A stretch of DNA of 64,000 nucleotides from a virus. A program made the position numbers and the translations under genes. The stretch lies in the IMG/VR virus record IMGVR_UViG_3300048838_001809; one strand, given 5' to 3'. Below the pieces are notes generated by a model. The model saw only the letters and a list, made by a program, of their open reading frames with translations. It had not been told where the DNA came from and did no database searches. Below are positions 1-24,371 of the stretch, in pieces. The stretch's first letter is position 1, and every line of letters starts with the position of its first letter.

Positions 1-1932
1 TGCCCGCCCCAACTCACGCAAAAATGGCAGCGCGAGATCGAAGAAACTGTCCCCGGCGCTCAAGTTGTACAGCTCCGGTCGTTCCGGCAGCTCACTCGCC
101 TCGATCGTCGCTCGCGCCCGACTGGTCCTGAATACTGGATCGTCAAAGAGACGACCGCCAAAGACGGCGCGGCCTGGGAGCCGGCGTACACGATCTGGAA
201 AACCCGTAAGGGCTATTCAAAGGTTGACAAGTCGACTTGCCCGCAGTGCCCGAATTGCGGGCGGTTTATCCTCAACAAAAAGGGGTCGCCGATTCCGCCG
301 AGCGAGCTGGCCAAGCGTCGCCTCTTCTGTGTCGGCACCGAAGAAAGTCCAGGCTGTGGCTCGCCGCTGTGGACCTACAATGGCGTCACGAAGAAATGGG
401 CGCCAGCGGACTACATCAAAAAGCACCTGCGGGGATTCTTCGACTATCTGGTGGTCGACGAAATCCATGAAGAGAATTCGCCGACATCTGCCCGCGCCAA
501 CGCCATGGGCACGCTGGCCGCCGCTTGCCGCAAGGTGATCGGCCTGACTGGTACGCTCGTCGGCGGTTATGCGTGGCACCTGCGCACGCTGATCCTGCGC
601 ATCGCTCCACAATCCCTCACCGCCGAGGGTTTGCATTGGGGCAACGTGACGGACTTCAATCGCCGCTACGGCCGGATGGAAACAAAGGTCGTCACCACGA
701 GCGACGCCGCGAGCGCTGACAACAAGCGATCGAAGGGCTCGCAGCGCACGATCCAAAAGGCCATCCCTGGCATCATGCCTACGCTGTTCGGCCGCCACCT
801 GATCGACAAGTGCGTATTCCTCTCGCTGGACGAGTTGTCTGACAACTTGCCCACGTTCGAGGAAATCGTGATGCCGATCAAGATGGACCGCAAGCTCGCG
901 GAAGCCTACCAGGAAACCGAAGAGGCGTTGCGCATCGTCGTCAAGCAGATGATCGCTCGCAATGATCGTCGCCTGCTGTCCGCCATGCTTGATTGCCTGC
1001 TGACTTACCCGGACATGCCGTATGGCTGGGACGAAGTGGGCTATTGGCAAAAGGTCGAGACGCCCAAGGGTATCCAGAATCACTTCATTCCGGTGGTCCA
1101 ACCGCCGGACTTGGGTGAGTCCATCCGTGCGAAAGAGCAAGCCCTGGTCGAAACGATCCTGGCCGAGCATGGCGCCGGCCGGCAGTGCTGGGTGTACGTC
1201 ACTTGCACCAACAAGCACGATGTCGCTGGCCGCGTGGAGCGTGCCCTACGGGATGCCAAACTCAAGGCTCGCGTGCTGCGGTCATCCGTCAGCACCGATG
1301 CTCGCGAGGACTGGATTAACGAGCACGCGCCCAAGCTGGACGTGATCATTTCACATCCCCGGCTGGTCCGCACTGGGCTCGATCTGTTCGACAAGCGAGG
1401 GCGACACAACTTCCCCTCGTTGTTCTTTCACGAAACCGGCTACGACCTGTTCACGCTGCGGCAGGCCGCTCGCCGTTCATGGCGGATTGGCCAGCACCTG
1501 CCATGCAAGGTGTTCTACTCGTTCTATGCCGGCACCATGCAGGCCCGCGCGATGACGCTCATGGGACGCAAGCTCGTGGCGTCCGAAGCGATCGAGGGTA
1601 AATTTTCGTCCGAAGGGCTCGCGGCCATGTCGGGTGAAGACGACGAGTCGATGCAAATCGCTCTGGCTCGCTCGCTCGTCAACCGCATGGATGACATGGA
1701 CGCCGAGCGCGTCTGGTCGAAAGTCAGTCAGGTGCAAGGCAATGCTCACTTCAAGCCGCCGGCAGTGGCACCAGCCGCACCAGTGGCCGCATCATTGCCG
1801 CCTGCCAAGCCTGACAAAGCCGCTGGCCGTCAGCGAAAGCAGCAGCCGCAGCCGCAACCCGTCGTCGAGCAGTCCAAGCCGGCGGCACCCAAGCGGAAGA
1901 TCACGTTCCGCGAGAAGTTCTTGTTTGACTAA
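1..1932 (+). CDS. DEAD/DEAH-box (SNF2-like) DNA helicase, 5'-partial.
   Basis: Frame 1 is open from the window edge. Contains a motif II-like 'LVVDEIHE' and an SNF2 motif III-like 'GLTGT', then a helicase C-terminal region. A Cys-cluster insert (CPQCPNC...C..GC) is present, and the tail is low-complexity PAAP/PQP. Confidence 0.75.
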   Translation, partial: CPPQLTQKWQREIEETVPGAQVVQLRSFRQLTRLDRRSRPTGPEYWIVKETTAKDGAAWEPAYTIWKTRKGYSKVDKSTCPQCPNCGRFILNKKGSPIPPSELAKRRLFCVGTEESPGCGSPLWTYNGVTKKWAPADYIKKHLRGFFDYLVVDEIHEENSPTSARANAMGTLAAACRKVIGLTGTLVGGYAWHLRTLILRIAPQSLTAEGLHWGNVTDFNRRYGRMETKVVTTSDAASADNKRSKGSQRTIQKAIPGIMPTLFGRHLIDKCVFLSLDELSDNLPTFEEIVMPIKMDRKLAEAYQETEEALRIVVKQMIARNDRRLLSAMLDCLLTYPDMPYGWDEVGYWQKVETPKGIQNHFIPVVQPPDLGESIRAKEQALVETILAEHGAGRQCWVYVTCTNKHDVAGRVERALRDAKLKARVLRSSVSTDAREDWINEHAPKLDVIISHPRLVRTGLDLFDKRGRHNFPSLFFHETGYDLFTLRQAARRSWRIGQHLPCKVFYSFYAGTMQARAMTLMGRKLVASEAIEGKFSSEGLAAMSGEDDESMQIALARSLVNRMDDMDAERVWSKVSQVQGNAHFKPPAVAPAAPVAASLPPAKPDKAAGRQRKQQPQPQPVVEQSKPAAPKRKITFREKFLFD

Positions 1933-2028
1933 CCAATTCCAACACTAGGGGCTCCCGTCGACCTGGCGCGTCAGTTGTGGGCGCGCTGGGCGGCGGGAGT
2001 TTTTGTTTCTGCATCCGAAAGGAACCCA

Positions 2029-2277
2029 ATGGTCGCACCCTCACTCCAGTACCGCGTCAGCACGTTCCGCCTCGCCGGGATCGAAGCCAAGTGGGGCCGC
2101 ACCCGCAAACACGCACCGATCATTTTGGTGCGCAATCCCAACGCCAGCACCAAGCATCAGCGCGAAACATGGTGGGCCGTCCACCGGGACATGTTCGAGC
2201 GGATGCAGGAAGTTGGCGTGCTCCAGGCGTTCGACGAGCACACTGCCCTGGGTGATTTGTTTTCCATGCCGGTATAG
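2029..2277 (+). CDS. Hypothetical small protein. An alternative upstream start exists at 1975.
   Basis: ORF with strong GC3 bias. An AAAGGA site sits about 7 nt upstream of ATG 2029. Confidence 0.45.
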   Translation: MVAPSLQYRVSTFRLAGIEAKWGRTRKHAPIILVRNPNASTKHQRETWWAVHRDMFERMQEVGVLQAFDEHTALGDLFSMPV

Positions 2278-2353
2278 AATTTCCTGCACTATCAATTACG
2301 ATCGAAGTAGGGACACCGACGGCAGTGGCACCAACCAACACTGAGGAGGCACC

Positions 2354-2818
2354 ATGTTAAAGAGCATCAGCATCCACTTACTTTGGGCGGCCGTCGCCGC
2401 ATCATCAGCGGCTGGAGCCTACATTCTTGGCTTCCAGGACGCGATCGTGGAACGAGCGGAGAACTACAACATCGAACGCGAAAAGCTGCTCGATGGCGTG
2501 AAAGTCCAGCAAGTCACCTACCCAGCCGGCATGAGCAGGCTGTACCCGCACGAACTGACGTTCCAGACCATAGGGGATGTTACGATTGTGACAACCTACC
2601 TGGCGCTGGGTCCGGGGCGATGGGGCATTGACTCCAGCGTGCCCGAAGCGATCAACAGACTTCGCGAAACTGGCTGGGACGGCGACCGGGCGATCATCTT
2701 TCGCAATGAGCGGCCGGACAAGCTGAGTGAACCATGGCTTGACGGCGGCTACGTCCATTACTTCGGCACACTGACCATCGTAGACAGGATCGTCGATGGC
2801 AAGGAGGCAAACGAATAA
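2354..2818 (+). CDS. Hypothetical secreted protein.
   Basis: RBS GAGGAGG at 2344-2350. The N-terminus is hydrophobic and signal-peptide-like (LLWAAVAASSAAGA). Confidence 0.6.
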   Translation: MLKSISIHLLWAAVAASSAAGAYILGFQDAIVERAENYNIEREKLLDGVKVQQVTYPAGMSRLYPHELTFQTIGDVTIVTTYLALGPGRWGIDSSVPEAINRLRETGWDGDRAIIFRNERPDKLSEPWLDGGYVHYFGTLTIVDRIVDGKEANE

Positions 2819-2895
2819 CGATCCTCGATCGAGGCACCCGCCATCGAGCGGGTTTTTTTATGCGCTTTCCCAAAACCTAGTTCGGAGCCCAACCC

Positions 2896-3297
2896 ATGAT
2901 CGAACTTTACACGTCCTGTTTTTCTCGCATCCGCACGCTGCCGCCCTCGATCGAGCCCGTATCGATTGCCCGCTGGCCAGCCCGCAACTTTCGCGGCAGA
3001 CGCATCTACACCGTCGCGCCGCCGCCGCTGGCCATGAAAGCCAAAACGCACGAGGAGTACGATGCACTTTACTTTCCGATCTTCCATTCGCTCGACCCGC
3101 ACGCATTCCTCACCGAGCTGACCGCGGGCCTGGCACCAGGATGCGAAGCGATCGCCATGCTCTGCTTCTGCGAGCCATTGGACTACTGCCATCGTCGCTA
3201 CGTCGCCGAGTGGCTGGAGCAAAACATCGACGGCTTGATCATCCCGGAGTACGGCTTCGAGCGCGAGCAATGCGAGACATTCACCGAATGGACCTAG
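2896..3297 (+). CDS. DUF488-like protein.
   Basis: About 130 aa. The C-terminal motif 'MLCFCEPLDYCHRRYVAEWL' resembles the DUF488 (YeaO-like) signature 'LLCfc...CHR..la.wL'. Confidence 0.45.
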   Translation: MIELYTSCFSRIRTLPPSIEPVSIARWPARNFRGRRIYTVAPPPLAMKAKTHEEYDALYFPIFHSLDPHAFLTELTAGLAPGCEAIAMLCFCEPLDYCHRRYVAEWLEQNIDGLIIPEYGFEREQCETFTEWT

Positions 3298-3387
3298 CGC
3301 GCACCTTGCGCAGATCGTTGACGGATTTTCAAGTCCGCATCGATAATCATCGCCGTTGAATGCAGATACCAAGCTGCGAGTCAAGCA

Positions 3388-3744
3388 ATGGCAAAGAAAC
3401 GTCGTAAGAGCGAACCGAGCGTGGCTTACAAAGCCGGCCGCGCCGTTCGCAAGGTCATTGACACTGTGAAAGGAGTCAACGTGGCGAAGAAGAAAGCGAA
3501 GCCGAAGGCCGCTCCCAAAAAGAAGCCGGCCGCACCGAAGAAGAAGGCCGCCAAGAAAAAGGCAGCCGCACCGAAGAAGGCCGCGCCGAAGAAAAAGGCC
3601 GCGCCGAAGAAAAAGTCCGGCGGCAAGAAGTCCGGCGGCAAGGGTGGCCGCATGGCCAATCTCGTCAAGCGTCACGGCAAGCGAAAGCTGTCCTCGCTGA
3701 TCAAGTCTGGCCGCATCAACGCCAAGACCGGCGCCGGGCAGTAA
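3388..3744 (+). CDS. Histone H1-like / AlgP-like Lys-Ala-Pro repeat DNA-binding protein.
   Basis: 118 aa. About 60 residues of KKAAAPKK / AAPKKK tandem repeats flanked by basic ends. The DNA shows a tandem aagaaggccgcgccgaagaaaaag repeat. Confidence 0.65.
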   Translation: MAKKRRKSEPSVAYKAGRAVRKVIDTVKGVNVAKKKAKPKAAPKKKPAAPKKKAAKKKAAAPKKAAPKKKAAPKKKSGGKKSGGKGGRMANLVKRHGKRKLSSLIKSGRINAKTGAGQ

Positions 3745-3780
3745 GCCTCTCGCGTCCGTCTCTTCAACTCGACTGTTTCG

Positions 3781-3824
3781 CCAGGATCGCATCTAACTCA
3801 TGCGATCCTGGCTGCTCTTTTTTT
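3781..3824 (+). terminator. Rho-independent terminator.
   Basis: Stems ccaggatcgcat / atgcgatcctgg (12 bp), followed by a T7 run. Confidence 0.6.
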
Positions 3825-3846
3825 GTGCGCGTTCGGGGCTTCACCG

Positions 3847-4566
3847 ATGGCTGTCGTATTCGACCAGACCATTAAGCGTCTGGTCCGTCTCGCCAAAGAG
3901 CACGACTCGATCCTCGTCAGCTACTCCGGCGGCAAGGATTCGCTGTGCGTGATGGACCTGTGCTGCTCTCTCTTCGCGCGCGTTGAAGCGTTTCACATGT
4001 TTTTCGTGCCGGGCCTGGCCCACGTCGAAGAACGCCTGGAGTACGCTCGCCAGCGATGGAAAATCGACATCCGCCAGTATCCGCACTGGGGCATGCTGCA
4101 ATGCCTCAAGCACGGCACCTACCGCTTCCCGGACCCCGCGTTCGCCTCGATGCCCGACCTGAATGTCCATGACATCGAGCGGCTGGCCCTCTCTGACGCC
4201 AAATGCTCGATCGTGGCCCATGGTGGCAAGATGTCCGATTCGCTCTGGCGTCGCCGGACGATGAAAGCGCTCTCGAAGTCTCACCAGGAACGCATCTATC
4301 CGATCGAGAAATGGAACAAGTGGCACGTTCTCGCCTATTTGCAATCCAAGAAAATCCCCGTCCCATCGTCGGACGGGGCAACTTCTGGCGGTCTGGGGTT
4401 GACGGTTTCGAGCGTACTGTGGCTATATGATTCCTTCCCGGAGGATTACGAGAAAATCCGGCTTGTCTATCCATTCGTTGAAGCAATTGTTAAGCGTCGT
4501 GATTGGTATGGAATTGGAACGCATGCAGCAGCAAAAGACCGTGCCCGTCCAGTACAGGCCGATTAA
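3847..4566 (+). CDS. PAPS reductase / PP-loop ATP pyrophosphatase family protein.
   Basis: SGGKDS PP-loop motif near the N-terminus. Phage proteins of this family are typically paired with a ParB-like nuclease. Start chosen downstream of the terminator; the track ORF starts at 3823. Confidence 0.7.
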   Translation: MAVVFDQTIKRLVRLAKEHDSILVSYSGGKDSLCVMDLCCSLFARVEAFHMFFVPGLAHVEERLEYARQRWKIDIRQYPHWGMLQCLKHGTYRFPDPAFASMPDLNVHDIERLALSDAKCSIVAHGGKMSDSLWRRRTMKALSKSHQERIYPIEKWNKWHVLAYLQSKKIPVPSSDGATSGGLGLTVSSVLWLYDSFPEDYEKIRLVYPFVEAIVKRRDWYGIGTHAAAKDRARPVQAD

Positions 4567-5083
4567 GCGGTTCCCTGGCTATAGGGCAGGCGATGATGGC
4601 TCTGTTTGGAGCTGCCGGAAAGTCAGGGGCAAAAAAGGTGGTGGCTGCGAATCTTATTTAAGTGATACGTGGCATCAGCTTCGTCCAATTAAAACATCAG
4701 GCGGGTACTACCGAGTCAGCCTGTGTCGCGATGGCAAGAAAATACTTTGTTTGGTTCATCGCCTTATTCTCGAAGCATTCGTTGGTCCGTGTCCGCCGGG
4801 TCAGGAGTGTCGTCATAAGGATGGCGATAAGTCCGACAATCGGTTAAGCGAAATCAAGTGGGGCACGCCAATGGAGAATTATCGAGATCGAATCAGGCAT
4901 AACACTCAGACTCGACACAACAAGGGCGAACTAAACGGCAGCGCCATTCTGACCACAGCTAAGGCGAGTGAGATTCGCCGCAAATATGCCGTTGGCGACA
5001 TGAGTTACGCAATGCTCGGCCGTGAGTTTGGTGTCAGTGCTGCAACGATCGCCAACGTAATCAGAGGCAGAACATGGAACTAA
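4508..5083 (+). CDS. HNH homing endonuclease.
   Basis: Motif 'HKDGDKSDNRLSEIKWGTPMEN' (HNH_3). The N-terminus 'FPGYRAGDDGSVWS' is NUMOD4-like. There is a C-terminal HTH-like tail. Local GC drops sharply over 4560-4960. Overlaps the 3' end of the upstream gene. Confidence 0.7.
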   Translation: MELERMQQQKTVPVQYRPIKRFPGYRAGDDGSVWSCRKVRGKKGGGCESYLSDTWHQLRPIKTSGGYYRVSLCRDGKKILCLVHRLILEAFVGPCPPGQECRHKDGDKSDNRLSEIKWGTPMENYRDRIRHNTQTRHNKGELNGSAILTTAKASEIRRKYAVGDMSYAMLGREFGVSAATIANVIRGRTWN

Positions 5084-6216
5084 CTGACGAGACGAAGGCC
5101 AGGAAGCCCCGCAAGGCGAAGCAGCAGCCGCCTCAGCCGCCCAGTGAGGCCGGAGAGCCAGTCGTTGGCACCGGGGAGCCCGCAGAAGCCCCACAGCCAT
5201 CACACGACGATCACACAGGCAGCCCACAGGCCGAGCCCGCAGAAGCCGCCGGCGACCCCTCTCCCTCTGAAACACCCTCTCCAGCCGCCGCGAAGTCCTC
5301 GCGCGCTAAAGACACTGCGCCCGCCGCGCTGACCGAGCTGGAGAAATTCACGTTCGAGGTCAAGCACCGGCGCGATCTCAAGCCGCACCCGAAAAACCCG
5401 AAAACCATCACGTCCAAGGCCCGCAAGAAGCTCCAATCGACGATCAAGCGCGTCGGCCTGATCGAGCCGATCGTCTGGAACAAACGCAACGGCTATCTCG
5501 TCGGCGGCCACCAGCGTCTCTCGATCATGGATTCGCACCACAAGGGGACCAACTACCGGCTGCACGTCGCCGTGGTCGACATGGACGAAAAAACTCACCT
5601 GGAAACCATGACCGCACTTTCCAACGCGCTCATGCAAGGCGAGTACGATCAAGACAAACTGAAATCTCTCTTCGCCGATGACAAGATCGGCATCGAGGAA
5701 GCGGGCTTTGACCTGGGCGAATACTACCGCCTCTTTGGCGACGAAGGATTCGAGGATCGCGCGCCTGACTTAGAGGACTTGGCCGAGAGAATCCGCGAGG
5801 CGACCGACCGCACCCAGAAGCAAGTCTCTTCCACCGGGGACCGCGACGATCCAGGCTTCTATGCCGTGCTCGTTTTCAAAGATCGCATTCAACGCGATGC
5901 CTTTGCCTGCGCGCTGGACCAAGGGACCGAGCAGGACCGCACGATCATCGACGGCCGCGGCGTGTTCGATTCGCTCTGCGCCATGCGCGTCATCCAGGCC
6001 GACCCGAAAAAGGCCGAAGAGCAACCCTATTCATCGATCCCTTGCTGCGATCGCTGCGGCGGCGCCCATGGTTACATTCCGATTCGCGAAATGACCGTGC
6101 CGACCGACACGCACAATTTCTGGGCTCTCTGCCCGGAAACGGGCGACCCGGTGTTCCTGTACTTTGACCCCGACGAAACAGAAGACGAAAACGATGGCGA
6201 AGACGAAGAAGAATAA
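5074..6216 (+). CDS. ParB-like nuclease-domain protein.
   Basis: 'HPKNPKTI...GLIEPIVWNKRNGYLVGGHQRL' matches the ParB N-domain. The N-terminal 100 aa are a low-complexity Pro/Glu/Ala linker. The C-terminus has a Cys cluster and an acidic tail. Confidence 0.6.
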   Translation: MELTDETKARKPRKAKQQPPQPPSEAGEPVVGTGEPAEAPQPSHDDHTGSPQAEPAEAAGDPSPSETPSPAAAKSSRAKDTAPAALTELEKFTFEVKHRRDLKPHPKNPKTITSKARKKLQSTIKRVGLIEPIVWNKRNGYLVGGHQRLSIMDSHHKGTNYRLHVAVVDMDEKTHLETMTALSNALMQGEYDQDKLKSLFADDKIGIEEAGFDLGEYYRLFGDEGFEDRAPDLEDLAERIREATDRTQKQVSSTGDRDDPGFYAVLVFKDRIQRDAFACALDQGTEQDRTIIDGRGVFDSLCAMRVIQADPKKAEEQPYSSIPCCDRCGGAHGYIPIREMTVPTDTHNFWALCPETGDPVFLYFDPDETEDENDGEDEEE

Positions 6217-6718
6217 CCCCCGCGCGCGCTTCACCGACCCCGATGGCCGCGGCACGGACGACTATCTCTACTCGAATTTTGAAATCATCACCACGCCCAA
6301 CGCTGGCCGTTCTGTGATCGCCCTGCGCGATTTTCTCCCGGACGAGCTGGTCATGCGAATCTACGGCCGGCTGATTCCAGACACCAAGCGATCGCCCTAT
6401 GGCTCGCATTACTGCATGGAACTGGACGATCATCGCATGATCCTGGAGCCCTACATGCCGGGGGGCCTGGTCAACCACTCCTGCTCGCCGAACTGCATCC
6501 AGAACACCAATCCCAACATCCCACACTGTTGGGAGTTGCGCGCTCTGTGCTTCATCGCTACCGGGCAGGAATTGTGCTACGACTACGGCTGGCCGTTTCA
6601 AGGGGAGTTCCCGAAATGTCACTGTGGCTCGTATAACTGCCGGGGCTACATTGTGTCCGAAGAGGACTTGCCGAAGTTGCTGGCCGCCAAGCGAAGGAAA
6701 AAGGCGAAGCGAAGATGA
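6194..6718 (+). CDS. SET-domain protein-lysine methyltransferase.
   Basis: SET signatures 'NHSCSPNC' and 'ELCYDYG', plus a post-SET 'CHCGSYNCRG'. A basic KKNNPR N-terminus and KRRKKAKRR C-terminus. An alternative start exists at 6164. Confidence 0.75.
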   Translation: MAKTKKNNPRARFTDPDGRGTDDYLYSNFEIITTPNAGRSVIALRDFLPDELVMRIYGRLIPDTKRSPYGSHYCMELDDHRMILEPYMPGGLVNHSCSPNCIQNTNPNIPHCWELRALCFIATGQELCYDYGWPFQGEFPKCHCGSYNCRGYIVSEEDLPKLLAAKRRKKAKRR

Positions 6719-6891
6719 TCGACTTGCTTTTGCGGATCAACACAAGACTCGGTGTGTTTGATCTGAATTCCGATCGTGGTCGCTGTGGTTTTTTCTACGC
6801 ACTAGGAATTGCAGTCGGTATCGCGGTTGGCACGTTCATCGTGTCGCCGTTTTTGATCTGCATGTTTATTTTGCAATCGAGGTCGCCGTGA
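6715..6891 (+). CDS. Small membrane protein, 58 aa. Below the ORF-track cutoff.
   Basis: ATGA overlap with the SET gene stop, and its stop overlaps the next GTG start. One TM helix (FYALGIAVGIAVGTFIVSPFLICMFIL). Confidence 0.3.
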   Translation: MIDLLLRINTRLGVFDLNSDRGRCGFFYALGIAVGIAVGTFIVSPFLICMFILQSRSP

Positions 6892-7103
6892 AAAACTGGT
6901 GCGATCAATGTCGGAGCAGCGGCACCATGCCGGACCCATCGGCCCGCTGGTGGCAGTTCTGGCGTCGCGTGCCATGCAAGGTATGTGGTGGTGATGGAAT
7001 CTCCAAGCCGCCTGGGTGGCCTGATCGCGAGGCAATGAAGTCACTCCGGCCGACTCCTTCGCCGCCGCCGCCGCCGATCAAGGTTTACCAGGGCAATGCG
7101 TGA
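6888..7103 (+). CDS. Small zinc-ribbon protein.
   Basis: GTG start. Two CxxC pairs (CDQC...CKVCGG) and a PPPPP tail. Confidence 0.4.
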   Translation: MKNWCDQCRSSGTMPDPSARWWQFWRRVPCKVCGGDGISKPPGWPDREAMKSLRPTPSPPPPPIKVYQGNA

Positions 7104-7633
7104 TGACCGAGCCGATCACCGACCCCCAGACTGGTCACAAGTATGTCACCACGAAGGACGGGAAGGTACGCACCCCCAAGTCCACGGCGAAGGATGTCAA
7201 CGAGCGGGTGGCTGCTTGCGCGGACATGCTGGCGAGGCACTTTCATAAGCATCAGATCAAGGCGATGCTGAAGCAGAAATACGGCGTGGGTGGTCGTCAG
7301 GCCGAAACGTACATTTCTCGCGCGAGAGATTATTTGCTATCCCTCGCCGACGAAGGCCCGCGTGAGCTTGTCGCCAACGTGCTCGCCTCGCTGCGAACCG
7401 TGATCCGGCAATCCGACTCTGGTATGGAAGTGATTGCCGCCAACGCCGAGATTTGCAAGCTGTTCGGGCTCTACAAGCCAGTCAAGATCGCCCCGACCAC
7501 GCCCGATGGAAGTCAACCGTACGCCCTCGCGGAGCGGGTGGCGCAATCACTCACAGATGAACAACTCCAATCGCTGTTCCTGTTGAAGCAACAGATCGAC
7601 AAGGCGCAGCAGATTGAACACAAGCCGGAATGA
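7100..7633 (+). CDS. Hypothetical protein.
   Basis: ATGA overlap with the upstream gene. Good GC3 bias. Confidence 0.5.
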   Translation: MMTEPITDPQTGHKYVTTKDGKVRTPKSTAKDVNERVAACADMLARHFHKHQIKAMLKQKYGVGGRQAETYISRARDYLLSLADEGPRELVANVLASLRTVIRQSDSGMEVIAANAEICKLFGLYKPVKIAPTTPDGSQPYALAERVAQSLTDEQLQSLFLLKQQIDKAQQIEHKPE

Positions 7634-7830
7634 CTATGCGTTGTGCCAACTGCGGCGCCAGGTGCAGCCGCGACGAACTAAAGCAGTGCGATGATTGCCT
7701 CGAATTCATCTGCGAGGCATGCTGCGCGGAGTTTCCGCATCACGATCCGCCGCACAATCGCTGCGGGGATTGCTACGAGCGGCTGGGGCCAAGGGAGTTA
7801 AGCAAGCGCAAGCACAAGCAATGCCGCTAA
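7630..7830 (+). CDS. Small Cys-rich zinc-binding protein.
   Basis: Multiple CxxC motifs (CANCGARC, CDDC, CEAC, CGDC). ATGA overlap. Confidence 0.4.
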   Translation: MTMRCANCGARCSRDELKQCDDCLEFICEACCAEFPHHDPPHNRCGDCYERLGPRELSKRKHKQCR

Positions 7831-8171
7831 CGAGTCGCCTGCTCCGTGGAGTCGCTGACACCAGGCTTGAGCGATTTTCTCACGGACCTACCGATTGCCC
7901 TGGCCCACGGCGAATCAATCCGTTCGCCGGCAATTTGCCCGCACACCGAGCAGCGATAGGGCATCGTTGAATAGGCATTCAGCGCTGCGTGCAAAATCCA
8001 GAACGGCAGCCACAGTCCGCACATCAAGAGCGCCAGCCCTAGGTGTAGTACGTGCGGAACTTCGTAGGTGTCGCGGGTGTGCAGCGACACCTGTTGACAC
8101 CGATAGCAATAACTCTGCTTCTGTTGGTGTGCCATTTCGTTCCCCTCCATTAAGTGCCGGAGCCACTGCAT
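7827..8171 (-). CDS. Zinc-ribbon membrane protein. It is the only minus-strand gene in the left 60 kb.
   Basis: CYRC...central TM helix...CSVCG. Both overlapping +strand ORFs are Arg/Ala-rich artefacts. Upstream is an AT-rich divergent intergenic region. Confidence 0.5.
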   Translation of the reverse strand: MQWLRHLMEGNEMAHQQKQSYCYRCQQVSLHTRDTYEVPHVLHLGLALLMCGLWLPFWILHAALNAYSTMPYRCSVCGQIAGERIDSPWARAIGRSVRKSLKPGVSDSTEQATR

Positions 8172-8342
8172 CGATTATACCTAACCCCGTTATCAGCAAC
8201 GATTAAAAAATCTTGTTGACAGTTTTGATAACAGTCGGCCATATTCTGCCCTCGCGACGGCGGCGACCAGCCGCGTTCGGGCGATCAAGGACAAAGCTTC
8301 CCGCCGCCGTCGCTTTCCTCCGCGTCCTAGGGGGCCAGTAAT
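8172..8342. promoter_or_regulatory. Divergent regulatory region with a sigma70-like promoter candidate and a 12-bp inverted repeat.
   Basis: TTGACA at about 8215, then 17 nt, then a catatt-like -10. Perfect inverted repeat gcgacggcggcg (8263-8274) / cgccgccgtcgc (8305-8316). AT-rich relative to its surroundings. Confidence 0.35.
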
Positions 8343-8759
8343 ATGGTCGATCTTCTCCTTGCTATCCGCCGCTACACGGCCTGGACCAACTCACCGAAGT
8401 ACACTCGGCATGCCGCGATTTCCGGTAAATTCCGACAGGCCATTGGCGTTGAAATCGCCAAGCTCCAGAATCAGCCGTCGCTCTCAAAAGACCTGGCCGC
8501 CAAGCTCGCCGCGCTCCGCGAGCTGCTGCACGAATCGCTGACCGATGAGCCGGCGGCCGTCAAGCAGATCGCCGCGATCGCCGAGCAGTTCGTGCTCCAG
8601 TTGCCCGAATCGCTCCAGCGCAGGCTGGCCGAGCCGGAGCCGGAGCAATCCAATCTGCCCGCCGAGACTGGCGATTTCATTCCGACCGAGTTCAGCTCGC
8701 CGCCGGAAGCACGCAATCCCTATCCAGGGTCGCTGCCGCGCAGGAATCACGATGGCTGA
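8343..8759 (+). CDS. Hypothetical protein.
   Basis: ORF with GC3 bias. First + gene after the divergent region. Confidence 0.55.
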   Translation: MVDLLLAIRRYTAWTNSPKYTRHAAISGKFRQAIGVEIAKLQNQPSLSKDLAAKLAALRELLHESLTDEPAAVKQIAAIAEQFVLQLPESLQRRLAEPEPEQSNLPAETGDFIPTEFSSPPEARNPYPGSLPRRNHDG

Positions 8760-9198
8760 CAGCAACATTCGCACGTTCATGGCCATTCCTGTTCGCGGGC
8801 CGTGCGGCGGCATCTATCACGGAGGGTTCGAGGAAATCATGGACGACCAAGCCGTCACGAAGTTCGACACCGGAGCCGTTCGCGGCAGCAGCCCCAAGGC
8901 TCGCCTCGATCTGATCAGCCCTGTCGGCCTGCGTCGCGTCGGCAATGCCTGTGCGGAAGGGGCCGTGAAGTACCCGCCGCACAACTGGAAAAAGGGCATG
9001 CCCGCCAGCGTGTTGATCAACCACGCGCTGGAGCATATCGCCAGCTATCTGGAAGGGAAGACGGAAGAGGACGATCTGGGTCATGCGATTTGGAACCTGA
9101 TGACGCTGTGCCACTTCGAGGAAAAAATGCCGCACCTGATCGACATCCCGGAGCGGCCGGAGTACGAGCACTACCTGAAAGCACAGTCGACTCAATGA
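8752..9198 (+). CDS. dATP/dGTP pyrophosphohydrolase-like (DUF5664-type) phage protein.
   Basis: 'KARLDLISPVGLRRVGNACAEGAVKYPPHNWKKG' resembles the conserved 'KPRYDLIPPEAL...GA.KYGD.NWEKG' N-terminal domain. ATGgcTGA overlap with the upstream gene. Confidence 0.45.
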   Translation: MADSNIRTFMAIPVRGPCGGIYHGGFEEIMDDQAVTKFDTGAVRGSSPKARLDLISPVGLRRVGNACAEGAVKYPPHNWKKGMPASVLINHALEHIASYLEGKTEEDDLGHAIWNLMTLCHFEEKMPHLIDIPERPEYEHYLKAQSTQ

Positions 9199-9538: not shown

Positions 9539-10945
9539 ATGTCCAACGATCTACTGAAAGCCCGCCTTGTTTGGGACGGCGGCGACGAAGTGCGAATTCC
9601 GCCAGAGATGGGCGTGCCGCGCAGCGATCAAATGCAGGGGACGGCGGCTGAGCGGCTGAGCGAGTTGGCAGGGCGAGTATGTTACGACTCTCTGGGCAAG
9701 GGCAGGCCGAGCTTTAGCCGATCAGGAGAGTTCAATAGCGCGGAGATCGCATCGAAACTAGACGTGATTGCCGAGTATCGGGAGCTGGGGGTGCAGTTTG
9801 TTGGCGTCGAGCACAATGGCTGCATGACGTGCCATGCGTTCGGTCGAGCAGATTCCAATCCATCGGCATTTGTGAACATAAAGGATGGCCGCTATCACGA
9901 CGCAGCAAACGGCGACAATCTGTCGCTGATCGAGTTCGCAATGAAGGCAGGCAAGTTCAGGAAATGGAGCGATGTCGCCGCCCATTTCGCACAAAAAGCC
10001 GGCGTGTCATGCAGCAGAGTTGAGGGCTACCACGACCACATCCTCGCCGTTGGCCACGGCAGCGTGTTGGAGCATTTCAATTTCACGATCGGCGTTCAGG
10101 GCTTCGATGCCGATTACGCTGCCTATCTGCTGATTAATCGTCCCGGCATTATCTTCCACAGCCACTGGCACAATGCCGATTTCAGAATAACCGTCAATCT
10201 TCGCGCGATACTCGAATGGCAATCCTTCGCCGACGAGTTCGGTAACCTTGACGACGAGTATCGAATTGATGCTCACAATGATCTTGGTCGTCTTCTCGCT
10301 GAGCTTGGCCATCAAGTTGCGCCACACATCATTAAGCGACCGGAGCAATCGTCGTCGACTTCGGCGATGATCATGCCGCCTGAAACTGACCACGAAAAGT
10401 GGATCTCCCTCTACCTCTCCGGCAGCCGCGGCTTCTCACACGAGCAAGTCCGACATGGCGACTTCACCGCGATCAGCCAGCGGAGTACGCGGTATGTGGA
10501 TGAAGATGGTTCGCCGTGGGTCGAGCATCCACTGATCACGGCATACATCAACGATGTGCATGCCGAAGACACAGCTATCCCGAGCTGTGCGGATGAAACG
10601 ATGAAGTCGGCACAGAACACTTACCGTCTGACCGTTCACGAGCTTGAGGCGTATCTGATCGACCGCAAGGTCGACAAGACTTCCGCCCGCAAGCAAGCCC
10701 GCGGCGCGGCACGCGGCTATCTCGGCAACGCACTGCAAACCGAAATGATCTTCTCCGCGTCCGTCAGTCAGTGGCGCAGGATGGTTCAACAGCGATGCTC
10801 CCGGCACGCCGATGCAGAGATACGGGAAGTCTATGTCCAGGTGGTTCGTGAGTTGCAAAAAAGCAGGTATGCAGACTCATTTCAGGACATCCGGTTAATC
10901 GACTCACCGGACGGCATCGGACAAGTGGCAGAGTTCGTGAAATGA
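9539..10945 (+). CDS. ThyX-like protein (FAD-dependent thymidylate synthase fold) with a non-canonical signature and an inserted CHC2-like zinc-finger segment.
   Basis: N-terminal 'AGRVCYDS' and 'SRGFSHEQVRHGDFTAISQRSTRYV' parallel the ThyX 'aRvCy.S' and 'RHR(X7)S...RY' motifs, but the third Arg is Gly and there is a one-residue insertion. Residues about 90-150 ('C..CHAFGRADSNPSAFVNIKDGRYHDAANGDNLSLIEF') resemble a primase-type zinc-binding element. Confidence 0.5.
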   Translation: MSNDLLKARLVWDGGDEVRIPPEMGVPRSDQMQGTAAERLSELAGRVCYDSLGKGRPSFSRSGEFNSAEIASKLDVIAEYRELGVQFVGVEHNGCMTCHAFGRADSNPSAFVNIKDGRYHDAANGDNLSLIEFAMKAGKFRKWSDVAAHFAQKAGVSCSRVEGYHDHILAVGHGSVLEHFNFTIGVQGFDADYAAYLLINRPGIIFHSHWHNADFRITVNLRAILEWQSFADEFGNLDDEYRIDAHNDLGRLLAELGHQVAPHIIKRPEQSSSTSAMIMPPETDHEKWISLYLSGSRGFSHEQVRHGDFTAISQRSTRYVDEDGSPWVEHPLITAYINDVHAEDTAIPSCADETMKSAQNTYRLTVHELEAYLIDRKVDKTSARKQARGAARGYLGNALQTEMIFSASVSQWRRMVQQRCSRHADAEIREVYVQVVRELQKSRYADSFQDIRLIDSPDGIGQVAEFVK

Positions 10946-11481
10946 AAATCATACGCTTGCCATCTGGCCATGAAGTGCTTGTTGATGATGCTGATTACGA
11001 TTGGCTTGCCAGCCTTCCCTGGCGACTTGCGGTTCGCAACAAGACATCCTACGCCCAAATGCAAGTCGGACGAAAAGGCCGCAGGGTTTACATGCACCGC
11101 ATGATCATGGGTGAGCCAGACTGCCTCGTGGATCATCGCAACCGCAATGGACTTGATAATCAGCGCCACAATCTTCGATTAGCTACACAGCCACAAAATC
11201 AGCACAATCGCGGGCCGGTTCTTGGAACGAGTTCGCGATTCAAGGGAGTGCGAAGACATTCGCAAAATAACTGCTGGGTGTCACATATCACGTTCAATAA
11301 AGTTCGCAAGCACCTAGGGACATTCGTAAGCGAAGAGGTTGCGGCACTGGCCTACGACCAAGCAGCCAGAGAGTTGGCTGGAGAATTTGCGAAACTAAAC
11401 TTTCCAGACGTAATTGACTATTCAATCGTCGCAGTGTCACGAGGAAAGATAGGGCGGCGACCAAAAGCATCAACCATTTAG
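10942..11481 (+). CDS. HNH-AP2 homing endonuclease.
   Basis: 'VDHRNRNGLDNQRHNLRLATQPQNQHN' (HNH) followed by 'SSRFKGVRRHSQNNCWVSHITFNKVRKHLGTFVSEEVAALAYDQAA' (AP2). AT-rich island. ATGA overlap with the ThyX-like gene. Confidence 0.75.
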   Translation: MKIIRLPSGHEVLVDDADYDWLASLPWRLAVRNKTSYAQMQVGRKGRRVYMHRMIMGEPDCLVDHRNRNGLDNQRHNLRLATQPQNQHNRGPVLGTSSRFKGVRRHSQNNCWVSHITFNKVRKHLGTFVSEEVAALAYDQAARELAGEFAKLNFPDVIDYSIVAVSRGKIGRRPKASTI

Positions 11482-11797: not shown

Positions 11798-12187
11798 GTG
11801 GATTACGACATCGAACGAGCGAAGCAAGAGCAGGCCGAGATCCGCAAGGCGTTCCGGGAGATATTCCCGCTTGCTGCCGAGAGTGATCTGCCGTGGGCAG
11901 CCTCGCACATCAAGAACTTCCTGCGGGACCGCATCAAGCGCGAAGTTCAAGAGGGCGTGTTTCATTTTCAATCTGCCATTGTTCGCGTGCTTTGCGAAAT
12001 CTCGCCACCGAAAACGCACGTCGTCGACATGGCCCGGATCGTCGTCGAGGCAGCTAGAGATGGTCGACGTTTTCAAGAGCAACTAGAGAGCGTCAAAAAA
12101 GAACGTGACGAGCTGCGTGACGCGCTGCGGGAGCGAATCAAACAACCCGAAAAGATTATTGAGGAAATCAAGAAAGACAAGCAATGA
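11798..12187 (+). CDS. Hypothetical protein.
   Basis: GTG start with AGGAGA RBS 6 nt upstream. C-terminal coiled-coil. Confidence 0.5.
   Translation: MDYDIERAKQEQAEIRKAFREIFPLAAESDLPWAASHIKNFLRDRIKREVQEGVFHFQSAIVRVLCEISPPKTHVVDMARIVVEAARDGRRFQEQLESVKKERDELRDALRERIKQPEKIIEEIKKDKQ
12097..12150 (+). repeat. Direct repeat copy 2, inside the 3' end of CDS 11798-12187.
   Basis: See copy 1. Confidence 0.5.
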
Positions 12188-12612
12188 AAAACTATATCGA
12201 GCAGGCACTGACCACCGAGGCCCCTATCACGCCGGAGCTAGCCAATCGCCTTATTACCGATGCTCGCGCCGTACATGCGATCTTTGGACTCGCGACTGAA
12301 ATCGGCGAACTGACCGACTCGTTCAAGCGCACGATCTTTTATGGCAAGCATGCCGACCGCACGAACATCGCCGAAGAGATTGGCGATGCGTTCTGGTATC
12401 TGGCCATCCTCTGCGATCACGTCGGCGTGAGCTTCGAGCAGTGCATGGTGGCCAACATCAACAAGCTCCGCGCTCGTTATCCGAATAAGTTCACAGAGCA
12501 CGATGCAGTGAATCGCGACCTGGGGAATGAGCGGGCGGTACTGGAGCGGCATGTGCCTGACGATTTGCAAGCAACGGAACCGCGAGCGAGTTCCGTTGCG
12601 AACGGACGCTAA
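12184..12612 (+). CDS. MazG-like nucleotide pyrophosphohydrolase.
   Basis: 'EEIGDAFWYLAIL' and '...NINKLRARYPNKF' match the all-alpha NTP-PPase (MazG) signatures. ATGA overlap. Confidence 0.7.
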   Translation: MKNYIEQALTTEAPITPELANRLITDARAVHAIFGLATEIGELTDSFKRTIFYGKHADRTNIAEEIGDAFWYLAILCDHVGVSFEQCMVANINKLRARYPNKFTEHDAVNRDLGNERAVLERHVPDDLQATEPRASSVANGR

Positions 12613-23415: not shown

Positions 23416-23561
23416 AAAAAGGAAGGCGAAAGGCTGTCTAAGTATGCAAAAACAAACCCAGCCGAAGGATTCGCTGAATTTGGACGAGCGGTGATTTTGG
23501 GTCTTGTCGACAAAAAAACATTCCCGTTGTCTTATGCCGCTTGGGAAAAATTCGGTCTACT

Positions 23562-24371
23562 ATGATTCTCACTGAATTATTCAACGTGCCTGTAACCAAG
23601 GACGGCAAGTTCGGGGATGCGTGGATTCAGCGAAAGCGATCCAGAAAGAAATCGCTGGAATCGCTGCTCAATGAAGCCACAGACCTACTCACCAAAGCCA
23701 ACGCCTGTCACTTGCCCGCAGGCCCGCGCGGCGGGCAGTTCTGCTCCGGCCGTGGCAGTGGTGGCAAGCGTGGGACTGCCGCTGCGAAACCTGCCGCCAA
23801 GGCGAAGCCGGCCGCCAAGGCGAAGCCGGCCGCCAAACCAAAGACCGCTGCGAAATCAGGGGCCTCGCGAGTTCCCGAACAAAAGCCGCTCACGTCGAAG
23901 GCCGAGCGGGCGAAGGCGACGTACAAGCCGTCGACAAAAGAGAAGCAGGCGTTCGCCGACAAAGTGGAAGCCATGATCGCTCGCAAGCTCGGCGCGAAGC
24001 GCACCGATGACAACAAGCCGATGGACAATACGATCAAGATCAACGGGAAGCTGCACGGCGTTGAAGTCAAAGCGATGGTCGACAATAAGAACGGCAAAGT
24101 GACAGTCCACCCGGAGAGCAACCAGCGCAAAAAAGAATGGGCTGGCGGCAAGAGGCCAACGCACCTGATCATCTATGATGGGCAAAAAGAATTCTCCGGC
24201 GGCAAGAACGCGCATCAGTATACTGGGCACAATCTGTATTACTGCCGGGGGACGGGTGCGTTTCGCGCGAAGGCCCAATACAAAGCCAAGAGCGTAGCCG
24301 AAATCAAAAAGCTCATGGCCCTGAGCGATTCCGAATTTGAAGCACTTAAGCGAAAGCAGCGCGGCAAATGA
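23562..24371 (+). CDS. Lys/Ala-repeat (AKPAAK) protein that shares the GGQF motif.
   Basis: 'CHLPAGPRGGQFCSGRGSGG' followed by 'AAKPAAKAKPAAKAKPAAKPKTAAK' repeats. ATG 23562 preferred over the track's TTG at 23541. Confidence 0.5.
   Translation: MILTELFNVPVTKDGKFGDAWIQRKRSRKKSLESLLNEATDLLTKANACHLPAGPRGGQFCSGRGSGGKRGTAAAKPAAKAKPAAKAKPAAKPKTAAKSGASRVPEQKPLTSKAERAKATYKPSTKEKQAFADKVEAMIARKLGAKRTDDNKPMDNTIKINGKLHGVEVKAMVDNKNGKVTVHPESNQRKKEWAGGKRPTHLIIYDGQKEFSGGKNAHQYTGHNLYYCRGTGAFRAKAQYKAKSVAEIKKLMALSDSEFEALKRKQRGK

Follow-up and report, generated by a model that had tools for sequence, protein, structure and literature searches.

A candidate phage gene cassette that joins a predicted SET lysine methyltransferase and a lysine-rich polycation to a PP-loop/ParB-like pair

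Genes at the locus

The 64-kb stretch of DNA analyzed here (the window) is from virus record IMGVR_UViG_3300048838_001809, and our subject is a group of genes at positions 3388-6718 that encode a lysine-rich protein, a PP-loop ATPase, a ParB-like protein and a predicted SET-domain lysine methyltransferase. The window lies within a ~174-kb metagenome contig from the Joint Genome Institute (JGI), has a GC content of 59%, and belongs to a tailed phage, genes for portal, protease, major head and tape measure proteins having been identified in it; scanning it for Rfam families and tRNAs gave no match. Every gene from 451 to 7830 is carried on the + strand. An earlier note on this DNA had placed the lysine-rich open reading frame (ORF) and the SET ORF in one co-oriented early module, and this holds, both being encoded on the + strand within a conserved cassette. 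The features of this region are as follows.

3318-3347 (+): sigma-70-like promoter match, TTGACG-18-GATAAT, which agrees with the consensus at 10 of 12 positions and lies ~40 nt before the lysine-rich gene; the consensus may not be that of the host
3388-3744 (+): polycationic "H1-tail-like" protein, 118 residues, pI 12.0, recognized by ORF, composition and position
3780-3822 (+): strong intrinsic terminator after the lysine-rich gene, with a 13-bp stem, 8 G-C pairs and a T-run
3847-4566 (+): PAPS-reductase-family PP-loop ATP pyrophosphatase of the IbrA/DndC-like class, 239 residues (PF01507, E=8e-8, 32.9 bits vs 22.5; phrog_2302 and phrog_424)
4508-5083 (+): free-standing endonuclease with HNH_3 and HTH domains (Pfam HNH_3, E=1.7e-10; phrog_59, E=1.5e-39)
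5074-6216 (+): ParB/Srx-like protein, 380 residues (phrog_9353, E=1e-35; phrog_620, "ParB-like partition protein", E=4e-21)
6194-6718 (+): predicted SET and post-SET protein lysine methyltransferase, 174 residues, recognized by profile, invariant residues and structural model

Two antisense ORFs, 2758-3792 (-) and 3426-3668 (-), overlap profile-supported genes of the + strand and were taken as spurious.

The SET methyltransferase

Judged from its sequence and its predicted structure, the product of 6194-6718 is a genuine SET lysine methyltransferase in which fold and catalytic residues are intact. The ORF extends over 6164-6718 when read from an alternative TTG, and the gene call of the source uses the ATG at 6194, the product being identical to protein P0001. 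The Pfam SET profile (PF00856) matches over its full length (positions 1-105 of 105) with E=3.5e-11 and a score of 43.9 bits, the cut-off being 22.4, and the NHSCSPNC, ELCYDYG and CHCGSYNCRG motifs, for which the earlier note had regarded the domain as bona fide, are confirmed in the ORF; the signature residues align with those of MLL3. The best matches of a phmmer search against the PDB are MLL3, ASH1L and SETD2, and the alignments extend across the post-SET region. ELCYDY is identical in MLL3, and the post-SET segment aligns with the MLL3 sequence CHCGAVNCRK in a CxCxxxxC motif. Residues G38, G58, N94, H95, C97 and Y131, which represent the GxG region, NHSC, and ELxYDY with its catalytic tyrosine, are invariant in the window protein and in a 40-sequence alignment of its relatives, as are C142, C144 and C149 of the post-SET zinc cluster. 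An AlphaFold2 (AF2) model has a predicted local distance difference test (pLDDT) score of 84.9 overall and >90 in the core, and a Foldseek search of the PDB with this model places MLL1/2/3, SETD2, NSD2/3 and ASH1L at the top of the matches (probability 1.00, template modeling (TM) scores of 0.6-0.7, and E~1e-10 for MLL1/2/3).

The SET protein also carries basic tails, which are MAKTKKNNPRARF at the N-terminus and a C-terminal helix, LLAAKRRKKAKRR. In SET enzymes, tyrosine at the Phe/Tyr switch position goes with mono- or dimethylation and not with trimethylation; the tyrosine of ELCYDY that aligns with the switch position of MLL suggests that the window enzyme would add one or two methyl groups. 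The PDB matches also include 9l4t, a SET-fold enzyme named BurB, which presumably methylates a small molecule and not protein lysine.

The lysine-rich protein

The 118-residue product of 3388-3744 contains 36 lysines, 22 alanines and 8 prolines (31%, 19% and 7%, respectively) and only 2 acidic residues. It is laid out as an N-terminal segment of 34 residues, a K/A/P-rich repeat core at about residues 35-76, a KSGGKKSGGKGG stretch, and a 31-residue basic C-terminal extension that ends in GAGQ. In the DNA, the core with its AAPKKK-type repeats corresponds to 5.3 copies of a degenerate 18-nt tandem repeat, together with a 15-nt repeat. Because only this ORF, 23541-24371 and one 26-residue fragment reach a lysine content of at least 14% among window ORFs of at least 25 residues, the composition of the protein is not due to chance.

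Library searches with the protein in Pfam (E<=0.1, with the Hc1 and Hc2 models included), NCBIfam and PHROGs matched no family, and the same is true of library searches with seven counterparts from other phages. The PDB search returned no H1 or H5 chain even at E<=1, and the winged-helix globular domain (Linker_histone) was not found. Searching 5.8 billion proteins with the whole protein gave two marginal low-complexity matches in a list that was saturated by low-complexity words and hence uninformative. Homology to histone H1, Hc1, Hc2 or AlgP was rejected because no profile or PDB match supports it. The label "H1/AlgP-like" used in the earlier note thus describes the composition of the protein (K/A/P repeats and a pI of 12) and fails as a statement of kinship in Pfam, NCBIfam, PHROGs and the PDB; as far as its sequence tells, the resemblance to H1 tails is one of composition only. 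Like the C-terminal and SPKK-type tails of linker histone H1, the protein combines ~31% lysine and ~19% alanine with proline in short AAPKKK-type repeats, and a counterpart in contig L269 has KKSPPKKSPTKK; unlike linker histone H1, it has neither the winged-helix domain nor any homology, and its repeat is a local expansion of tandemly repeated DNA.

With a promoter-like site in front of it and a terminator behind, both recognized as consensus matches, the lysine-rich gene looks like a transcription unit of its own. Comparable promoter matches precede micro-ORFs in contigs L004 and L006, and equivalent hairpins follow them at L004 7852-7889 and L007 5232-5257. Such an arrangement fits an abundant, stoichiometric product that is made apart from the enzymes. 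No Shine-Dalgarno-like sequence was seen before the cassette genes examined in the window (3376-3399). The start ATGGCCAAGAAA, encoding MAKK, recurs on several cassette genes (window 3376-3399; L006 7441-7460, 8368-8387 and 9607-9626), and may represent a context for translation initiation rather than shared ancestry. The MAKKRRKS start common to the window and L006 proteins was considered as a sign of homology and dropped, since other cassette genes have the same ATGGCCAAGAAA context.

A cassette shared by several phages

Six phage-like contigs, the window among them, carry genes for a polycation, a PAPS-reductase-like protein, a ParB-like protein and a SET protein, the SET sequences being 28-50% identical. 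In the window, L004, L006, L007 and L269, the order is PAPS-reductase-like, ParB-like, SET, with SET proteins that are 38-50% identical, and several of these cassettes are preceded by genes for a DUF6094 protein, an SNF2 helicase and a DUF488 protein. The order differs in L094, an IMG/VR contig with a small temperate-type genome context, where SET is followed by the micro-ORF, the PAPS-reductase-like gene and the ParB-like gene, and terminase-like genes lie ~3.5 kb downstream. The L094 SET is at distances of 0.64-0.67 from cellular SET proteins of Acidobacteria and Opitutales versus 0.75-0.84 from the other phage SETs, which suggests that SET was recruited into the cassette more than once, independently in L094. 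Among phage contigs with enough flanking sequence, six of seven have SET in or beside the cassette.

All six cassettes encode a polycation, next to either the PAPS-reductase-like gene or SET, and in L006 and L094 the polycation gene directly adjoins SET. The polycations of L004 are a 40-residue protein (MAKKAKKGKK...KSKGTG) and a 69-residue protein; those of L006 are a 42-residue protein ending in SRGRRTGGGSG and a 115-residue protein encoded directly upstream of SET; and those of L007 are a 40-residue protein ending in GGGGGGGG and a 67-residue protein. L269 encodes a 90-residue polycation with the KKSPPKKSPTKK motifs and a GGGGGG run, and L094 one of 35 residues, MARKVTRKTRKAATRKTTRKSRGARKAARRTGGGG, at ~10522-10629. 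Paralogous polycations within one genome end in the same C-terminal tail (L006 7533-7580 and 9918-9965; L004 7788-7841 and 8151-8204), and the DNA differences between these tails are nearly all synonymous, with 6 synonymous and 1 non-synonymous codon in L006. It would follow that the micro-ORFs are translated and that the tail is under purifying selection, and the tail has the look of a recognition element particular to each genome.

We tentatively read these genes as a single early-gene cassette in which the SET enzyme would methylate DNA-bound basic proteins, most likely the polycation of the cassette, a reading that we regard as quite possible. The window polycation would belong, as an expanded form, to a class of Lys/Arg-rich micro-proteins, most of which end in oligo-glycine. 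Probably abundant, it would coat or condense DNA at the sites of action of the ParB-like and PP-loop proteins. The basic tails of the SET protein, and perhaps also the translationally coupled ParB-like protein, may hold the enzyme on this DNA-protein complex, where with S-adenosylmethionine (SAM) it would methylate lysines, those of the polycation being the likeliest substrate and those of host nucleoid proteins the alternative. Methylation would keep the positive charge, change the bulk and block other lysine chemistry, and could in this way tune the behavior of the polycation. The pairing of SET and polycation as enzyme and substrate is plausible because the two co-occur in all six cassettes and because cpnSET of Chlamydophila pneumoniae, as a passage of PMC3980110 summarizes the work of Murata et al. 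2007, methylates the H1-like proteins Hc1 and Hc2.

The PP-loop/ParB-like pair without SET

Several observations weigh against this reading. BLASTP between the polycations gave no significant alignment and no lysine-containing motif is conserved among them, so that there is no evident common site for SET recognition, and they form a class by position and composition, with no proven homologous family. DNA binding by the polycation is itself predicted from composition alone. The phages behind five of the six cassettes are related, so that common descent rather than selection could account for the synteny, and the independent recruitment of SET in L094 depends on an unbootstrapped neighbor-joining (NJ) tree. 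The phage-like contig L268 has a SET gene with no PAPS-reductase-like, ParB-like or polycation gene nearby. Moreover, about 20 phage contigs with the PAPS-reductase-like/ParB-like pair, in which no SET was found, have a basic micro-ORF directly upstream of the PAPS-reductase-like gene, and the related phage L187 has a polycation, a PAPS-reductase-like gene and a ParB-like gene with no SET after the last of these.

The SET-less micro-ORFs encode Lys/Arg-rich proteins of 24-62 residues, usually with an oligo-glycine end, an example being MAKAKLKPKKKVTAKVAAKKKPAAKAKKGGRKPKGGGGGGGG in L124; none of them matched a family. Further ones were recognized on inspection in L109, L112 and L194. The following basic micro-ORFs were located.

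L106: 6615-6746
L107: 7094-7255
L124: 7127-7255
L127: 7230-7358
L186: 4018-4173
L187: 2759-2947
L203: 7227-7325
L112: 711-788
L247: 1639-1773

The loci were compared in a set of 160 that a ParB-like profile search retrieved from IMG/VR and metagenomes. The PAPS-reductase-like gene adjoins the ParB-like gene in 136 of them, and SET is present in one. Among loci with a GC content of at least 0.5, a basic micro-ORF lies upstream of the PAPS-reductase-like gene in 12 of 55 (~44 kb of upstream windows), compared with 4 elsewhere in 617 kb; under a stricter rule, requiring a glycine tail as well as basic composition, there are 9 upstream of this gene and 3 elsewhere in 2.2 Mb of strand-sequence. These counts are descriptive, the thresholds for micro-ORFs having been set after the data were viewed. 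The micro-ORFs concentrate in the nearest relatives of the ParB-like protein (7 of the top 10). Since many loci with the micro-ORF yielded no SET, the polycation would be primarily a partner of the PP-loop/ParB-like pair and SET an add-on. On the sequence evidence, the link between the polycation gene and the pair does not depend on SET, which was added in particular lineages. The earlier note's idea of a substrate-enzyme pair accordingly keeps its support from the six co-occurrences and from precedents of the cpnSET-Hc1 type, and gives way in so far as the polycation is found in about 20 loci with no SET detected, with the PP-loop and ParB-like proteins as its primary partners.

It could also be that proximity has no functional meaning, the SET gene being a passenger (moron) inherited in one phage lineage and the lysine-rich ORF an unrelated low-complexity gene. 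Such an account would accommodate the largely common early order (DUF6094, helicase, PAPS-reductase-like, ParB-like) of the phages that supply five of the six cassettes, the failure of the polycations to align, and the MAKK start that reflects a recurrent context and not homology. We consider it very unlikely, however, because L094 unites the same four parts in another gene order, with another SET sub-lineage and in a small temperate-type context, and because micro-ORFs are enriched upstream of the PAPS-reductase-like gene under both rules and tail codons appear to be under purifying selection.

Relatives and origin of the SET protein

A HMMER scan returned 2178 SET relatives at E<=1e-3, the best of which are stand-alone proteins of 130-280 residues with 40-50% identity. 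Their common plan is a variable and often basic N-terminus, the SET domain, the post-SET region and a basic C-terminal tail. In some relatives (P0033, P0030 and P0050), long H1-like K/A-rich tails are fused to the enzyme, for example KKAKKKSGKPKAESGKKTGKKAGKKTAKKAGKKAAKKPAAGRKK in P0033, which implies, as far as sequence can, an association of the family with the nucleoid. The genomic loci of the 80 best relatives were taken from data with one genome per species, and 57 of these loci are from Planctomycetota, mainly Pirellulaceae, Planctomycetaceae and Thermoguttaceae. The named members of the SET cluster are proteins of Pirellulaceae and Planctomycetaceae on contigs of up to 5.9 Mb, and the Rubripirellula copy (L010) is flanked by sulfatase and similar chromosomal genes. 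By these data the SET family is mostly chromosomal in Planctomycetota, often with H1-like tails. Phage SETs cluster with chromosomal Rubripirellula SETs in the NJ tree, which, with relatives mostly from Planctomycetota, points to gene exchange between host and phage; the host of the phage is probably a planctomycete. In viruses, a tblastn search with SET against 50,697 cultured-phage records (E<=1e-3) and a single-sequence pattern scan of IMG/VR gave no match, and a profile scan of IMG/VR found mostly distant SETs on very large contigs, only L094 being informative. No description of a phage SET was found in a literature search.

This ancestry bears on an alternative in which SET is a host-takeover enzyme, acquired from the planctomycete host, that methylates host nucleoid-associated or ribosomal proteins or translation factors, while the polycation serves the PP-loop/ParB-like pair and is no substrate of SET. 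Among cellular SETs, the nearest are chromosomal genes that are widespread in Planctomycetota and lie beside sulfatase and similar genes and not in prophages, so that a host substrate for this family must exist. The wide occurrence of the polycation where no SET was found, the SET-less cassette of L187, the SET of L268 with no cassette, and the terminator that splits the polycation gene from the enzyme genes all agree with it. Nevertheless, we think this alternative rather unlikely, since SET accompanies the cassette in six of the seven phage contigs, in two gene orders and apparently two SET sub-lineages. Nor does the chromosomal setting name a host substrate: in the 80 genomic loci, the search for a conserved neighbor of SET turned up no candidate for a substrate gene; it showed only synteny within lineages (sulfatase-like genes and the like), which spurious ORFs in high-GC DNA made less clear.

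The PP-loop and ParB-like proteins and neighboring genes

The SGGKDS motif of the PP-loop is invariant in our alignment of PAPS-reductase-like proteins (alignment A3). The ParB-like protein has an acidic, proline-rich N-terminus, a conserved GGHQR box (alignment A2) and a C-terminal CxRCG...H...CP motif; it matched no Pfam family, ParBc included, at E<=0.1. Its gene ends within SET in the window, overlapping it by 23 nt; in L004 and L269 the two genes are 21-30 nt apart. The PAPS-reductase-like/ParB-like pair is widespread in phages and often lies near terminase genes. In the cultured temperate-type phages L266 (Cutibacterium phage CA1NRNZ) and L267 (Lactobacillus phage LR1), the PAPS-reductase-like gene is beside the terminase genes, and no basic micro-ORF was seen in either.

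In having a PAPS-reductase-family PP-loop ATPase (SGGKDS) beside a putative ParB/Srx-fold protein, the pair would resemble IbrA/IbrB, DndC/DndB and BrxP, a likeness that follows annotation usage. IbrA and IbrB are annotated as co-activators of prophage genes (PMC4490671). Passages of PMC12839542 and PMC12914056 place related pairs, DndC/DndB and the BrxP of type 4 BREX, in DNA phosphorothioation, and a passage of PMC13229309 describes ParB-like proteins as partners of phage DNA-modifying enzymes. These parallels favor the idea that SET is a subunit of a PP-loop/ParB DNA-modification or anti-defense device, methylating the ParB-like protein, the PP-loop protein or an intermediate; SET and the lysine-rich protein might conceivably form a SAM sink instead, one that starves SAM-dependent host defenses. 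The close abutment of SET and the ParB-like gene, the presence in the same island of genes for a DUF6094 methyltransferase-family protein, an SNF2 helicase and a DUF488 protein, and the SET-fold enzyme BurB among the PDB matches, if its presumed small-molecule activity is accepted, point the same way. We nonetheless regard the idea as improbable: most of the pairs are without SET, which is present in only one of the 160 loci; the window SET keeps classic motifs of histone lysine methyltransferases and is most like MLL and SETD2; and no desulfurase or other Dnd or BREX gene was seen in the cassette, which sets it apart from those systems. In the literature on the IbrA/IbrB, Dnd and BREX pairs that we found, neither a basic glycine-tailed micro-ORF nor SET is described as a part.

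The HNH gene at 4508-5083 is an insert between the PP-loop and ParB-like genes that is present in the window only and absent at that place from L004, L006, L007, L269 and L094. It is probably a homing endonuclease outside the function of the cassette. Free-standing HNH_3 endonuclease genes, one of them with an AP2 domain, break otherwise conserved gene orders at window 4508-5083 and 10942-11481 and at L001 2714-3451, and all are probably homing endonucleases. Two further genes lie ahead of the cassette in the window.

451-1932 (+): SNF2/ResIII-type helicase, of which the window, starting inside the gene, has the C-terminal part (phrog_62, DNA helicase, E=2e-19)
2896-3297 (+): DUF488-N3a-like protein, 133 residues (Pfam E=8.5e-6, 26.5 bits, just below the 27-bit cut-off; phrog_2450, E=5e-16)

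On the contig (L001), the full helicase gene (ResIII/SNF2) is at 3496-5739, and a gene of the DUF6094 methyltransferase family lies upstream at 1240-2124. The cassettes of L006, L007 and L269 have this DUF6094-helicase pair in front of them as well, as does that of L186, a contig that ends ahead of any SET position. DUF488 often accompanies the PAPS-reductase-like/ParB-like pair. Of 16 loci with a basic micro-ORF, 8 have a DUF488 match, versus 17 of 98 without one (Fisher p=0.007), and in L127 the ParB-like and DUF488 profiles match one and the same ORF (7872-9122), a Rosetta-stone fusion by which DUF488 is tied to the cassette.

Elsewhere in the window, 8752-9198, 9539-10945 and 12184-12612 encode a protein with the N-terminal domain of a dATP/dGTP diphosphohydrolase, a ThyX with an N-terminal extension of ~290 residues, and MazG, respectively. 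Together these suggest nucleotide-pool remodeling and, possibly, a non-canonical base. In the tail region, 47068-49161 encodes a 697-residue protein that contains both a glycosyltransferase family 9 (heptosyltransferase) domain and a methyltransferase domain of the FkbM type.

The earlier note had also singled out a second protein with AKPAAK repeats, encoded at 23562-24371, as a possible packaged substrate of SET. The AKPAAK stretch is present in this 269-residue protein, encoded between the portal and head-morphogenesis genes, and forms a linker between two domains. The proposal found no support: the protein has no PDB match and no homologues, its single-sequence AF2 model (pLDDT 46) is unusable, and there is no link to SET. 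A D...EVK motif in the C-terminal part, together with a predicted alpha-beta-beta-beta-alpha-beta order, gives a hint of a PD-(D/E)xK nuclease fold, which we do not claim.

Discussion

Prokaryotic SET enzymes with basic DNA-binding partners are already known, and to judge from the sequences it is the phage-borne version, within a PP-loop/ParB-like cassette, that is new. The closest parallel to the proposed methylation of the polycation is cpnSET with Hc1 and Hc2, likewise a small bacterial SET lysine methyltransferase and lysine-rich, H1-like, DNA-condensing proteins. Chlamydiae and Planctomycetes both belong to the PVC (Planctomycetes-Verrucomicrobia-Chlamydiae) group. The Chlamydia genes, however, are cellular and not adjacent, and Hc1 and Hc2 are defined families, whereas the window protein matches none in Pfam (E<=0.1); the window pair is encoded by a phage alongside a PP-loop ATPase and a ParB-like protein, and is known here from its genes alone. 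Go1-SET, which acts on MC1-alpha in Methanosarcina mazei, and BaSET, which acts on histone H1 in work on Bacillus anthracis (PMC3980110), are also prokaryotic stand-alone SETs with small basic DNA-binding proteins as substrates, but they are cellular, have another genomic context and show no association with a PP-loop/ParB-like pair.

Among viruses, vSET of the Chlorella virus PBCV-1 is a minimal SET that is used in infection, has no post-SET zinc cluster and targets lysine 27 of host histone H3 (H3K27). It shares with the window enzyme the character of a virus-encoded SET lysine methyltransferase and differs in coming from a eukaryotic virus, the window enzyme belonging to a bacteriophage and having a full post-SET region, basic tails and a host without histones.

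The oligo-glycine ends and the lysines of the micro-proteins raise a further idea. Asparagine-synthetase-like lasso-peptide cyclases adenylate peptide carboxylates, and in the formation of lysidine by TilS a lysine is joined to an adenylated base. By analogy, the micro-proteins could be covalent substrates of the PP-loop enzyme, their genome-specific oligo-glycine C-terminus being adenylated and ligated to an amine on DNA or protein at ParB-marked sites, or their lysines being joined to an adenylated base; DNA or chromatin tagged with peptide would then resist defenses, and SET would control which lysines are reactive. We give this idea very little credence, although, if true, it would amount to a new kind of phage system for conjugating nucleic acids or proteins.

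The polycationic, glycine-tailed micro-proteins encoded alongside a very common phage gene pair apparently constitute an undescribed class. A literature search found no description of a basic glycine-tailed micro-ORF or of the cassette, and in the literature found the role of the PP-loop/ParB-like pair in phages and prophages is not established. The micro-ORFs are small, of low complexity and easily missed by annotation, for which reason the module is probably under-reported. They offer a concrete third component for PAPS-reductase-like/ParB-like pairs, which abound in phages and prophages. Should the SET enzyme methylate the phage polycation, as we tentatively propose, or host nucleoid proteins, this would be the first bacteriophage known, in the literature searched, to have a chromatin-type writer together with a basic DNA-binding partner, and "viral epigenetic" enzymes such as vSET would then extend to phages and to their little-studied planctomycete hosts.

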